Under the pieces are notes generated by a model, which saw only the letters and a list, made by a program, of their open reading frames with translations, was not told the origin of the DNA and did no database searches. A program made the translations under genes and the position numbers. A stretch of 64,000 nt of DNA from positions 22,568,001-22,632,000 of the forward strand of contig NC_043022.1 of NCBI RefSeq assembly GCF_006345805.1, written 5' to 3'. The DNA is from Octopus sinensis. Taxonomy: Eukaryota. Shown here piece after piece: positions 9,001 to 61,092 of the stretch; within the stretch, counting starts at the first letter, position 1; every line of letters begins with the position of its first letter.

Positions 9001-9345
9001 ATTCTTTTCTACTCTAGGTACAAGGGCCGAAATTTATGGTGGAGGTGGACCAGTCGATTAGATCGACTCCACTGTGTAACTGGTACTTAATTCGTCGACT
9101 CCGAGAGGATGAAAGGCAAAGTCCACCTCGGCGAAATATAAACTCAGAACGAAAAGACAGACGAAATACCTATTTCTTTACTACCCACAAGGGGCTAAAC
9201 ACAGAGAGGACAAACAAGGACAGACAAACGGATTAAGTCGATTATATCGACCCCAGTGCATAACTGGTACTTATTTAATCGACCCCGAAAAGGATGAAAG
9301 GCAAAGTCGACCTCTGCGAAATTTGAACTCAGAACATAAAGACAG
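9001..9345 (-). mobile_element. SINE family A, tandem partial units
   Basis: Reverse complement of the B-box GAGTTCAAAT and the core GCCTTTCATCCTTTCGGGGTCGAT...AAGTACCAG; two different 3' tails. Confidence 0.85.
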
Positions 9346-9846
9346 CAGGTAGGTAAATTAAATTTAGATTTAACGCGTTCATTACTGAGCTTAAGCGATA
9401 CAGTTATAGAAATAATGGGTGTACTTCCATAATTTAATTAACAATCTGTTGTTTTTTAACACACCTTCACTGTTTTTCTTATTTTGCATGGGTATGTCTG
9501 CATAATCATTATTTATATTATGACTAACTATATATATTTTTTATAACTATCTATTTCTATAACTGTCTATATATTTTTTACTATAATGGTACACTGTATT
9601 CTGCTTGCTTCTATGTTCTCGTTTTGTTTTTAAATATAGTAAAATTCTTTGAGCATCCTTCCCTGGAGATATTCTTAATTGTGGTAATTAACCGAATTAA
9701 TTTAGTTGAATTAAATTAAATTTGGCTAATTTAATTTGTTACCATGTGGTTGGTAAGCAAGCTACATACCACACAGCCACTCCTGCGCCTACATATATAT
9801 ATATATATATATATATATATGTGTGTGTGTGTGTGTGTGTGTGTGT

Positions 9847-9951
9847 GTACTTGCTTCGGCAGTACATATACTAAAATTGTAACGATACAGAGAAGATTAG
9901 CATAGCCCCTGCGCAAGGATGACACGCAAATTCGTGAAGCGTTCCATATTT
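9847..9951 (+). pseudogene. U6: Full-length U6 snRNA retrocopy
   Basis: GTACTTGCTTCGGCAGTAC 5' hairpin, ACAGAGAAG box, ...GACACGCAAATTCGTGAAGCGTTCCATATTT; two substitutions at conserved positions; preceded directly by microsatellite with no promoter and only a T3 3' end. Confidence 0.95.
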
Positions 9952-9956
9952 AACAG

Positions 9957-10191
9957 GGCGGTGAGCTAGCAGAATCGTTAGCACGCCGGGCGAAATGCGT
10001 AGTCGTATTTCGTCTGCCGTTACGTTCTGAGTTCAAATTCCGCCAAAATCGACTTTGCCTTTCATCCTTTCGGAGTCGATAAATTAAGTATCCGTTATGC
10101 ACTGGGGTCGATGTAATCGACTTAATCCGTTTGTCTGTCCTTGTTTGTCCCCTCTCTGTTTGGGCCCTTGTGGGTAATAAAGAAACATAAA
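9957..10191 (+). mobile_element. SINE family A, complete monomer with tail-1
   Basis: tRNA-like head GGCGGTGAGCTAGCAGAATCGTTAGC...GAGTTCAAATTCC, a central domain resembling Meta/Sauria-type SINE cores (from memory), and tail ...CCCTTGTGGGTAATAAAGAAAC. Confidence 0.88.
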
Positions 10192-10589
10192 TGTGTGTGT
10201 GTGTGTGTGTGTGTGTGTGTGTGTAATTAGTCGTCCGTACAAGTAAAACGTTGACAGTGGCAGTTTCGGCGTACCTACCTTCACCGGACTGTCTGCTGTA
10301 GGCCCAGCAATCCGACACGTCGAAGTCACTGTTAACCTGTCCCTTGTGTTCTTTTATCCTTTATTCTTTTACTTGTTTCAGTCATCTGACTGCGGTCATA
10401 CTGGAGCACCGCATTGAGGGGTTTAAGTCGAACAAATCGACGCCAGGACTTGTTTTTAAGTCCTAGTACTTATTCTGTCATTCTCTTTTGTTGAACCGCT
10501 GTTACGGGGAAGTTAACACACCAACACCGGTTGTCAAGTGGTGATGGGGGACAAACACAGACACAAAGATACACACACACACACACATA

Positions 10590-11230
10590 TTAGATTGTTC
10601 CGACAATAATGGCCGATTTCAGAAACAATTTTATTCTGGAAAAATTAACAATAGAAATGTTTTGATTAGTCAAAGTATGAGCCGTGAACATCGCTGCATC
10701 TCTGCCATCGATCAACGAGATTAATTGTGCCTCGTTGATAAAAACTTATTGGCTTTGATGCTAAGAAATCTTTGAAAGCTGATTCCACCTGTGGTTTGGA
10801 CCTGAAAGTTTTATCACTTAAAAGCGTGTTTAAAAGCTTTTAAAAAATGGTAATCAGGAGGTGAAAGGTCAGGAGAATATGGAGGATGTGGTAAATTCTC
10901 GTATCCCAAGTCTGTGAGTTTCTGCAGCATCATTTTTGCAACATGTGTATTAGCATTATCGTGGAGTAGAATTGAGCCATGCCGATTCACCAATGCAGGT
11001 CTCATTTTTTGCAAGTGAGCATGCATTTCAGTGAGATGATTGCAGTAAACCTCTGCTGCAATGCTCTGATTGGCTTCAAGAAAGCTGTAATGGACAACAC
11101 AAATTGCAGGCAACCAGACAGTCAACATAATCTTTTGCTGATGCAACTTTAGCTTTGGGAAACGTTCAGGGGACTCAACACGATCAAGCCATTGACCTGA
11201 TTGTTTACGGTTATCATAAAGGATCCACTT
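10590..11230 (-). mobile_element. Degenerate mariner transposase 3' fragment
   Basis: ORF 10814-11146 has LLHDNA and HPPYSPDLSPPDYH, the second-D and YSPDL motifs of mariner transposases. Confidence 0.9.
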
Positions 11231-57708: not shown

Positions 57709-58064
57709 ATGTACACACACACACACATATATGTATGTATGTTATGTATGTATATGTATATATCTTTCTTTGTGTGTGTGTGTTGTTGTTGTATCTTGGG
57801 AGAGACAAATACATCTTTTACTTGTTTCAGTCATTAGACTGTGGCCATACTGGGGCACTGCCTTGAAGAATTTTAGTTGAACAAATTGATGCCAGTACTT
57901 AATATTTTTTAAACCAGGGGATACACACACACACACACACACACAGACACACAGATTTATACACACACACATGCACATATTTATATATACATTTTCTTCT
58001 ATCTACTATTTGTTCCTTTATAAACTGTGAATTCCCTATCTAGAACTTTCATACACACTCAACT

Positions 58065-58142
58065 TGTCTCTGATGACGGAATACCCAGTGTATGGAGATG
58101 CTAACCTTTCACTTGCGATATCCCAGAAACAGCTGTCAGACA
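58065..58142 (+). ncRNA. Type I hammerhead motif with extended stem II
   Basis: TGTCT-CTGATGA-(49 nt)-GAAAC-AGCT-GTC-AGACA; perfect 5-bp stem I, imperfect base of stem II. Confidence 0.78.
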
Positions 58143-59077
58143 TCCAATAATTAATTACCTGAAATTCACCTTACCCTAATTAAGTATTCTAAAGTACTTC
58201 AGATACTTGTCTTGCCTTGGTTTTTGTTGTCCTTTTTCCTCCAACTCGGAAGCCTACAATGGATCCCTAGCTCCAGCCTCAGCTGTGAATTTGGAACCTA
58301 ATGGATGACCAATTATAGCCCTTACAACCTAATGGATGACCAATTATAGCCCTTACACATTTAGATCACCAGTCAACTAAACCCTTCATATTCTATATAT
58401 GTATATATATATATATATATATTATATATATATATATATATATATATATATACACTGTTGTGACTGGGGAGAGTCATTCACTTTTGGTACCTTATAATTT
58501 AACAATTGACATATTTTAAATATAATTTATTAATATAATATTATATTACACTTATAATGTAATATAATATGAATAATAATATAGTATAATATGAATAGAA
58601 ATACAAATAGTAATCCTATAAATTGCTCTGATTCGTAACCAATAATGAATTCATAAAAAATTCATATTTATGAGTATGAATCTCATCAGGGAAATATTTC
58701 ACAAAATTAGACAAAATTACATGTAAGGATTGTTAGTCCTACAATAGACTGAACTGAATATGTTTGTAAGCAGGAGTGTCAATAATTTTAAAATATAATA
58801 AAGATAAAAATAAGCGAATAAAATAAATAAAAACTTACGTAATGGTCATAAAATATTATTGTGCAATTTTAATAATACTAATCTAAAATTATTTCTGCCC
58901 ATTATTTTTTATATATAATATCTAAATAATATGCTAAGAATTTATGGTAGAGTAGGAAATAATCTTCTTTTATTCTTCATACTCTTAAGGAAAAAATACA
59001 TTTTATTCAGACAAAATATTCAGAAAAATTTCTGAAGCTCACAAAACACAACATGCTATATTAATCATGGCTAAATA

Positions 59078-59698
59078 CTCTTTTTACTTGTTTCAGTCAT
59101 TTGACTGTGGCCATGCTGGAGCACCGCCTTTAGTTGATTGAGCAAATCGACCCCAGGACTGATTCTTTGTAAGCCTAGTACTTATTCTATTGGTCTCTTT
59201 TGCCAAACCGCTAAGTTACAGGGACGTAAACACACCAGCATCGGTTGTCAAGCGATGTTGGGGGGACAAACACAGACACACAAACATATACACACCCATA
59301 TCATCATCATCATCATCATCATCGTTTAACGTCCGCTTTCCATGCTAGCTTGGGTTGGGCGGTTCAACTGGGGTCTGTGAAGCCAGAAGGCTGCACCAGG
59401 CCCAGTCTGATCTGGCAGTGTTTCTACGGCTGGATGCCCTTCCTAACATCAACCACTCCATGAGTGTAGTGGGTGCTTTTTACGTGCCACTGGCACGGAG
59501 GCCAGGCAAGGCTGGCAACAGCCATGATCGGATGGTGCTTTTTACGTGCCAGTTTTCGTCTACCAAATCCACTCACAAGGCTTTGGTCAGCCCGAGGCTA
59601 GAGTAGAAGACACTTGCCCAAGGTGCCATGCAGTGGGACTGAACCCGGAACCATGTGGTCGGTAAGCAAGCTTCATGCCACACAGCCACTCCTGCGCA
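59078..59698 (-). mobile_element. SINE-B interrupted by an RTE-tailed retroposon fragment (about 59300-59548)
   Basis: SINE-B halves flank minus-strand ..GGAAGGGCATCCAGCCGTAGAAAC..GCATGAAAGCGGACGTTAAAC(GAT)n. Confidence 0.75.
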
Positions 59699-60524
59699 TA
59701 TACTTGTTGAAAATAACTCATTTCAGTAATAGTGTGTGTGTGTGTGAGAATAAGTGAGTGTTCACACATACATACGCACACACACATACACACATATGTA
59801 TCTGCATCCTTCACACATGCACATATACACATACACATCATGCATTATGGACTGATGTCATCATTTAGATAGGCTCTGCCTAAAACGTATTATTTCCTTG
59901 TCATAATCCTCTGATCCATTGTCACCTGTGAAGTCTCATTCAACCTGTAAGATTAACTCATCACTCTCTTCCCCATCTCTGTCTCTCTCTTTCTCTCCCT
60001 CTCGGGATGCTTTTTTTACTTCCTGTAATAAATTTGTGTGTGTATACAGACATATTTTGCATAAAATTATATGTAAGAATGTAAGTATTAATATGTGTGT
60101 ATATATATATATATATATATATATATACACACAAATAGATAGACAGACAGACAGATAGATAGATAGATATACACAAACACACACAAACACATGCATGCCT
60201 ATGTGTGGGTGCATATATAGGTATGTTTGTGTGTGTGTGTGTGTTTATTAGCAATAATAGAACATGGAGACTTGTTCATCCTCAAAATGTATTTCCGCTT
60301 ATTTTACAATTTTATACAGCATATGATTATGGTCTTTATGACCTGTGCATGTCTCCACATCACAAATTATAGGCAGTTGCAGGTGCAACCTAGCACAGTT
60401 TTTGGTGCAACATCTTCAGGGTCAATCCATTTGGCTATGTATATATATATAGATGAAATTGGCTTATCCCCTCTCTCCAGAATGGCTGTCCTCGTGGCAA
60501 AATTTGAAACCCTTATTATTATAC

Positions 60525-61092
60525 TTATCTACTCTAGGCACAAGACCTGAGATTTTTTTTGCAGGATGGCAGTTTATTAGATTGACCCCAGTATGCAACT
60601 GGTACTTAATTTATCGACCCTGAAAGGATGAAAGGCAAAGCTGACATCGGTGGAATTTGAACTCAGAACGTAAAGACTGACAAGATACCTATTTCTTTAT
60701 TATCCACAAGGGGCTAAACACAGAGGGGACAAACAAGGACAGACCAACGGATTAAGTCGATTATATCAACCCCAGTGCGTAACTGGTACTTAATTTATCG
60801 ACCCTGAAAGGTAAAGTTGACCTCGGCAGAATTTGAACTCAGTACATGGCGGCAGACAAAATACCTATTTCTTTACTACCCACAAGGGGCTAAACACAGA
60901 GGGGACAAACAAGGACAGACAAACGGATTAAGTCAATTATATCAACCCCAGTGTTCGACTGGTACTTATTTTATTGACCCCAAAAGCATAAAAGGTAAAG
61001 TTGACCTGAACACAATTTGAACTCAGAACGTCGAGGTGGATGAGATGCTATTAGGTACTTTTGCCGGGTATGCTAATGAGTCTGCCAGCTTG
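60525..61092 (-). mobile_element. SINE family A trimeric array
   Basis: Junctions at 60689/90 and 60865/66. Confidence 0.85.

Follow-up and report, generated by a model that had tools for sequence, protein, structure and literature searches.

How does a short interspersed element (SINE) come to be joined, time after time, to other copies of its own family at the same two nucleotides? The question is raised by a stretch of 64,000 nucleotides of the Octopus sinensis genome, a genome rich in microsatellites (assembly GCF_006345805.1, contig NC_043022.1, positions 22,568,001 to 22,632,000; hereafter the window, to which coordinates below refer unless another locus is named). The SINE unit is 233 bases long and consists of a head and a body common to all copies, followed by alternative tails: tail-1 and at least three types of tail-2. 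By eye, the head contains motifs resembling the A and B boxes of transfer RNA (tRNA) genes; ARAGORN found no tRNA gene and tRNA model searches gave no match. The SINE may resemble members of the MetaSINE superfamily, which are characterised by a Meta domain of 66 bp behind the head. Octopus SINEs have been given the names "Twin" (Albertin 2015) and OK/OR1/OR2 and may include the present family. From sequence comparisons, we consider it likely that this SINE uses the endonuclease and reverse transcriptase of an L1/Tx1-type long interspersed element (LINE) of similar tail to insert into its own family.

The ten fixed tail-1 junctions listed in the initial annotation are all present. Seven of them, at 9170/71, 17056/57, 40590/91, 60689/90 and 60865/66 on the minus strand and at 52388/89 and 52540/41 on the plus strand, join the head at site 1, which begins with GGTATT. 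The three others use site 2 and show AGAAACG when placed one base earlier (16873/72, 40174/73 and 49004/05), a shift that makes AAAGAAATA the end of tail-1 at site 1 and site 2 alike. Pattern counts taken over 2.72 Gb gave 104,717 exact tail-1 ends in the whole genome, directly followed by GGTATT (site 1) in 40,786 cases and by AGAAWC (site 2) in 4,963, both numbers including some non-SINE targets that begin with the same letters; reversed-pattern controls had no match genome-wide. In a sample of 1.34 Mb, partly chosen around listed tail-1 matches and with 70 kb around site-1 matches, 122 of 260 tail-1 ends join a SINE head, 105 at site 1 (a few bases being slipped in two of these) and 17 at site 2, with none elsewhere in the head, while the remaining 138 are free, i.e., lie outside the family. 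The 664 kb that were not selected around matches hold 87 tail-1 ends (33 at site 1, 7 at site 2 and 47 free). Site 1 accounts there for only 58 of 3,529 GGTA words, yet for 27 of the 37 junctions starting with GGTA, and a four-letter preference therefore does not explain the joins. The fixed junctions are not due to chance. That arrays end in tail-2, as first described, is not general, many arrays elsewhere in the genome having tail-1 as their last tail.

Insertion of tail-1 units into the family itself, independently and site-specifically, is supported by nested copies and by the age of the units. A nest pattern, defined as a head that stops 2-20 bases past the site-1 GGTATT with another complete head behind it, has 99 exact matches genome-wide. 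Among the first 30 loci, 23 are independent (seven rows repeat a locus); read by eye, 19 of these have an inner tail-1 that stops at site 1, and a script check found a host-private change exactly repeated on both sides in 10 (L053, L066, L067, L069, L070, L071, L072, L076, L077 and L078). L070 is nested twice, and several of the nests lie in old tail-2 hosts that carry an outer duplication of their own. At a control position of the head, the pattern has 27 matches and no true nest among the five loci read; at site 2, it has 50, with true nests carrying private duplications at 2 of the 20 loci printed (22 given). Head-plus-head matches at these two positions were mostly 5' head repeats and were rejected as nests, and nested insertions into C-type heads gave three matches at two loci, neither informative.

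The initial annotation had proposed a comparison of inner and outer units, and the outer ones do prove older: tail-2 last units lie 10.3% from the consensus of their own type (n=17) and joined tail-1 units 5.5% (n=61; p=7e-4 for the difference), while free tail-2 copies, at 13.2% (n=40), do not differ from the former (p=0.12). Last units are of three tail types and the closest pair of the 17 differs by 9.8%; neither descent of the arrays from one or two multimeric masters nor mostly random tail-1 junctions, the two outcomes that would have spoken against the initial reading, was observed. The nested full-length tail-1 units occupy site 1 in other family copies, most of which are older.

A likely cause, overlooked in the initial annotation, lies within the window at 46611-48830. 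A SINE head with a 5' copy of the site-1 sequence (46611..46671, plus strand, the copy starting at 46660) precedes an internally deleted L1/Tx1-type LINE (46672..48830, plus strand) that ends exactly at site 1 (48830/31). Behind it stands the remainder of the host array (48831..49207, plus strand), made of a tail-1 unit starting from site 1, the site-2 join at 49004/05 and a tail-2a unit. The LINE retains its 5' untranslated region (UTR), part of its first open reading frame (ORF1), the 3' third of ORF2 with a zf-RVT domain, its 3' UTR and a tail-1-like end, and its 3' part is 90% identical to an intact young LINE family.

This family ends at the same base. The 30 best genomic matches to the LINE protein all end at site 1. 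The young LINE has 144 exact 3' ends and, among the 100 listed, 97 lie within three changes of site 1 by hand count, the other three being one slip and two ends elsewhere; the pattern used misses off-site ends with a C at position 12. Both proportions exceed the 20% of copies flanked by one target repeat that serves as a criterion for site-specific elements in work on crocodilians (PMC4494074). All 15 full-length copies fetched (5.35 kb) are located between a SINE head and site 1, and in all 15 the 5' join is at site 1 +16, the head ending 16 bases past site 1. These copies differ by 0.23%, versus at least 4% for the flanking heads and units, and the main LINE haplotype is found with both C-type and G-type heads, the two sides being concordant at 15 of 15 loci; the copies were therefore inserted independently into existing SINEs. 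A presence/absence look-up at one LINE locus, L183, returned contigs from four runs that covered the LINE but not its unique flanks. The ORF2 of the young LINE encodes 1134 amino acids, with matches to Exo_endo_phos (23-230), RVT_1 (514-755) and zf-RVT (974-1026) and with the GDSN and SDH motifs, and its ORF1 encodes 520 amino acids with a zf-CCHC match (319-335). The best named match is "Transposon TX1 149 kDa protein" (31%) and the best solved relative is L1 ORF2, these best matches pointing to an element of L1/Tx1 type that may belong to either clade.

The SINE and the LINE are also linked by their tails: the last 45-50 bases of tail-1 and of two LINE families are alike, albeit not identical. 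Target and duplication length agree as well, with site 1 used by both, a median duplication of 15 bp for the SINE and a LINE join at +16. As to age, members of the intact LINE family are 0.23% apart, SINE units lie about 5% from their consensus, and older LINE copies are found at 60-90%. Related LINE families whose tails are similar occur within microsatellites or form tandem arrays of their own. A second family (ORF2 of 1132 amino acids, 77% identical), with a similar tail, was seen at L186-L188 and L190 in mixed tandem arrays with shorter ORF1-type units and with a different junction sequence. Further fragments of L1/Tx1 type, again with related tails, terminate in TCTA, TAT/AAT or GGAT repeats (the pieces at C1:14080001, C1:8360101 and C1:3214201, and the C26 flank); such varied ends suggest a radiation with different targets.

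Free copies add information on the target. A duplication could be anchored for 41 of the 138 free tail-1 ends, with a median of 15 bp (10th-90th percentile 13-19). The pre-insertion copy begins with a loose (G/T)(G/A)TA, preceded immediately by C in 17 of 41 cases. Both SINE sites loosely match this motif, and GC precedes each. A long target duplication (120-150 bp) by a short, tail-only element was considered and rejected, because adjacent bodies rarely share private changes and because free elements have duplications of 13-19 bp. A test for cryptic duplication between adjacent units (16 shared changes versus 2.8 expected) was not used, as 12 of the 16 came from a single array of ten units.

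A mechanism can be proposed on these grounds, of which the nick, the priming and the annealing are what we infer. A LINE of the tail-sharing group would nick the SINE head at site 1, and the nick would prime reverse transcription from the SINE tail. Upstream homology between donor and host would usually let the complementary DNA (cDNA) anneal to the host head, so that only one head remains. Since each insertion would keep the site usable, units would stack, and retrotransposition of whole multimers, together with local duplication, would spread the resulting arrays further. Site 2 probably serves as an additional target, weaker than site 1 and taken mostly by a single tail variant. The seamless 5' junctions proposed at the outset fit 58 of the 59 headed arrays of the sample, a second head being present upstream in one; the single head of the others would presumably derive from the host copy. 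In 25 arrays ending in an older unit, the tail-2 marker is found in 3 first units versus 16 last units.

The SINE head folds as a long hairpin (z -3.2; window 40730-40824, minus strand), with site 1 at the 3' edge of its loop. Pairing between head positions 44 and 49 is possible in 120 of 140 heads (T-G in 62, G-C in 36, T-A in 16 and C-G in 6), while tail hairpins fold no better than shuffled sequences. Tandem repeats of 65-67 bp of the SINE head, at L058-L065, C7:15.32 Mb and C3430, end about 16 bases past site 1; they thus share the 5' join point of the LINE and possibly result from repeated restarts at the second nick.

Several observations weigh against this mechanism. Targeting is loose for the SINE, over half of the tail-1 ends (138 of 260) lying outside the family; of the sequence-specific insertion first claimed, the specificity for the sites and the independence of the events hold, and strictness does not. 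Only a small number of nested insertions can be seen (99 exact matches genome-wide, and one in the 59 headed arrays of the sample). Heads of the 25 arrays ending in an older unit are at 7.0%, versus 4.3% for free heads (p=0.06), and show no correlation in divergence with the last unit (rho -0.07, same 25 arrays); given this weak signal of host origin, either the crossover would have to be placed high in the head in many cases, or whole arrays were frequently copied. Multimers that are truncated and bear a duplication of their own also occur, so that part of the joins may not have been made de novo. As for the LINE, a pattern search of the genome for one with exact tail-1 gave no match; none was found at site 2 either, where a LINE-B-type tail pattern matched once, in a SINE. 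The tail of the young LINE differs from tail-1 at several bases, the family is far younger than most SINE joins, and it enters C-type heads at 57 of the 100 ends listed, whereas SINE joins start with C in 406 cases versus 40,786. The young family may thus not be the actual partner of the SINE.

Among the alternatives, the one that survives best is that the site is set mainly by pairing of RNA running on past the tail with the nicked target, rather than by the endonuclease alone, which we regard as possible but doubtful. Each tail variant would then seek the sequence at which its own source copy sits, a corollary that we hold just as tentatively. Tail variants do predict the target: the T-variant is found 99 times at site 1 and twice at site 2, the C-variant 6 and 14 times, respectively (p=6e-12), and free targets begin with GG in 44 of 88 cases for T-variants and in 0 of 50 for C-variants. 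The same pattern could nonetheless stem from several partners, since related LINE families have near-identical tails and different targets, or from inheritance from multimeric sources, and the young LINE has a C-variant tail yet uses site 1. In favour of run-on pairing, SINE joins avoid C (1%), although 34 of 110 tail-1 heads carry CG there. Among the 41 anchored duplications, the 3' and 5' copies differ within their first four bases at four loci, one of them a misalignment; at the other three, all four changes are toward the expected run-on sequence and none away from it, numbers that are tiny. A bias also affects the base in front of the site (C in 17 of 41), for which run-on RNA offers no explanation. 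Run-on pairing fits a requirement for downstream target sequence reported for R1Bm (PMC7265360). Run-on pairing is compatible with LINE-mediated insertion as an extra step. Possibly, though doubtfully, SINE and LINE form a closed loop: the SINE would serve as landing pad as well as passenger, its RNA, running on into the former landing site, would pair with the next target, and the choice would be inherited with the locus; if true, self-homing would reinforce itself, giving an RNA-guided, self-homing SINE.

It is improbable that a few founding insertions created multimeric sources from which most of the 40,000 and more joins descend as read-through copies, lengthened locally, with targeting in a minor role. 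Such copying does occur: 5'-truncated dimers are found within one duplication at C1:14185993 and at window positions 9004-9350, a dimer was inserted as a block at site 2 (L261), and some neighbouring units share private changes (L013, L016/17). To this extent insertion unit by unit does not account for everything, some arrays having been copied whole as 5'-truncated multimers and others grown by local duplication. A first base that is only G at joins and heads that are often no older than the first unit point the same way. The old last units of three tail types, none of the 17 closer than 9.8%, speak against it as a general explanation, as does the low proportion of upstream-unit private body changes shared by adjacent units (38 of 281, in 83 pairs), and the nests with host-private duplications together with the 144 LINE insertions indicate that the site was struck repeatedly.

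Template jumping, in which the reverse transcriptase would pass, with no targeting of DNA, from SINE RNAs with either of two fixed ends to the tail of another RNA, is disfavoured and very improbable here: jumping does occur, as seen from the fusion of U6 and SINE at 9847-10187, and a strong RNA hairpin (z -3.2) has site 1 at its loop, but jumping can yield neither duplicated host-private bases flanking an insert and an intact outer element, nor last units older than inner ones.

The other copies in the window illustrate these routes. A 5'-truncated dimer on the minus strand (9004..9350), composed of a tail-1 unit, a site-1 join (9171/70) and a tail-2 unit, is flanked by a 9-bp duplication (9351-9359 and 8995-9003) and is read as a multimer copied whole. 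The U6 fusion (9847..10187, plus strand) combines a full copy of U6 small nuclear RNA (9847-9953) with a free tail-1 monomer. Two dimers on the minus strand end in tail-2a units, one with a site-1 join (40426..40823; 40591/90) and one with a site-2 join (39977..40406; 40174/73). Of three trimers, that at 16675..17289 (minus strand) consists of a headed tail-1 unit, a site-1 join (17057/56), a second tail-1 unit, a site-2 join (16873/72) and an old tail-2b unit; that at 52169..52709 (plus strand) has two site-1 joins (52388/89 and 52540/41) and an old tail-2b last unit; and that at 60524..61094 (minus strand) has two site-1 joins (60866/65 and 60690/89) and a first head and body far more diverged than the tail-1 behind them. 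A free tail-1 fragment with no SINE head is located at 62559..62607 (plus strand). At 44000-44595 (minus strand), three tail-2b copies, all of them old, follow one another head to tail, separated by short AT-rich spacers, and represent a second route of array formation. The window also contains a degraded Penelope-like element at about 1500-7800, with a weak GIY-YIG match (4472-4870), a repeated end near 1514 and 7792 and long CA-rich repeats; a fragment of Mariner transposase (Transposase_1; 10817-11233, minus strand) adjoining a truncated SINE head; and a fragment of large-subunit ribosomal RNA (34507-34669, plus strand).

Parts of this system have counterparts elsewhere, as far as the accessible portions of the papers cited here go. 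The proposed mechanism appears to resemble most that of SINEU and Tx1-Mar in crocodilians (Kojima 2015, PMC4494074), in which a SINE and a Tx1-clade LINE likewise share sites in an interspersed repeat, with two preferred positions and tandem SINE copies formed by sequential insertion, and for which different LINE families have been proposed for different SINEs. The target there is a Mariner DNA transposon, whereas in the octopus it is one exact base in the head of the SINE family itself, the probable passenger of the LINE, which would be the new part; in the octopus, moreover, the joins number in the tens of thousands, the 3' tail is shared and the young LINE is intact. The Alu-into-Alu hotspot at position 133 (Levy, Schwartz and Ast, PMC2836564) also concerns insertion of a SINE into its own family, at one nucleotide and in sense, but is explained by a weak L1 site beside an A-rich linker, with about 16,000-19,000 events and an L1 that is not specific to Alu. 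The octopus joins surpass this hotspot in share, since about 45% of tail ends belong to them, and their LINE is more specific (97%); the upstream head is usually not duplicated. R1 and R2, elements of ribosomal DNA (rDNA), form precise 5' joins, for which annealing of cDNA to a homologous upstream target has been proposed (Stage and Eickbush, PMC2718515), have duplications of about 14 bp, and are helped in priming by downstream target sequence in their RNA (PMC2718515; PMC7265360); they differ in being autonomous, of other clades and directed to rDNA or telomeres, and for the octopus annealing is an inferred step only. Abundant SINEs of tRNA type with swapped tails, to which the present family may be compared, are known from octopus and among the MetaSINEs (PMC4824008), and for O. 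vulgaris L1-Tx1 families with recent activity have been listed (PMC13282606). No description of a LINE targeting its own passenger SINE, or of the octopus joins, was found in this literature, the scope of which did not extend to Repbase notes, supplements or the octopus genome paper.

Site-specific LINEs usually target host RNA genes, microsatellites or DNA transposons. A LINE aimed at the head of a SINE that carries its own kind of tail would make its own safe landing sites, and would explain a genome full of SINE multimers, which would themselves inflate family counts and distort age estimates. The young intact element is a LINE of the apurinic/apyrimidinic endonuclease (APE) type with single-base specificity, accompanied by more than 100,000 natural insertions, and the system could be used to test how endonuclease and RNA pairing share the choice of target.

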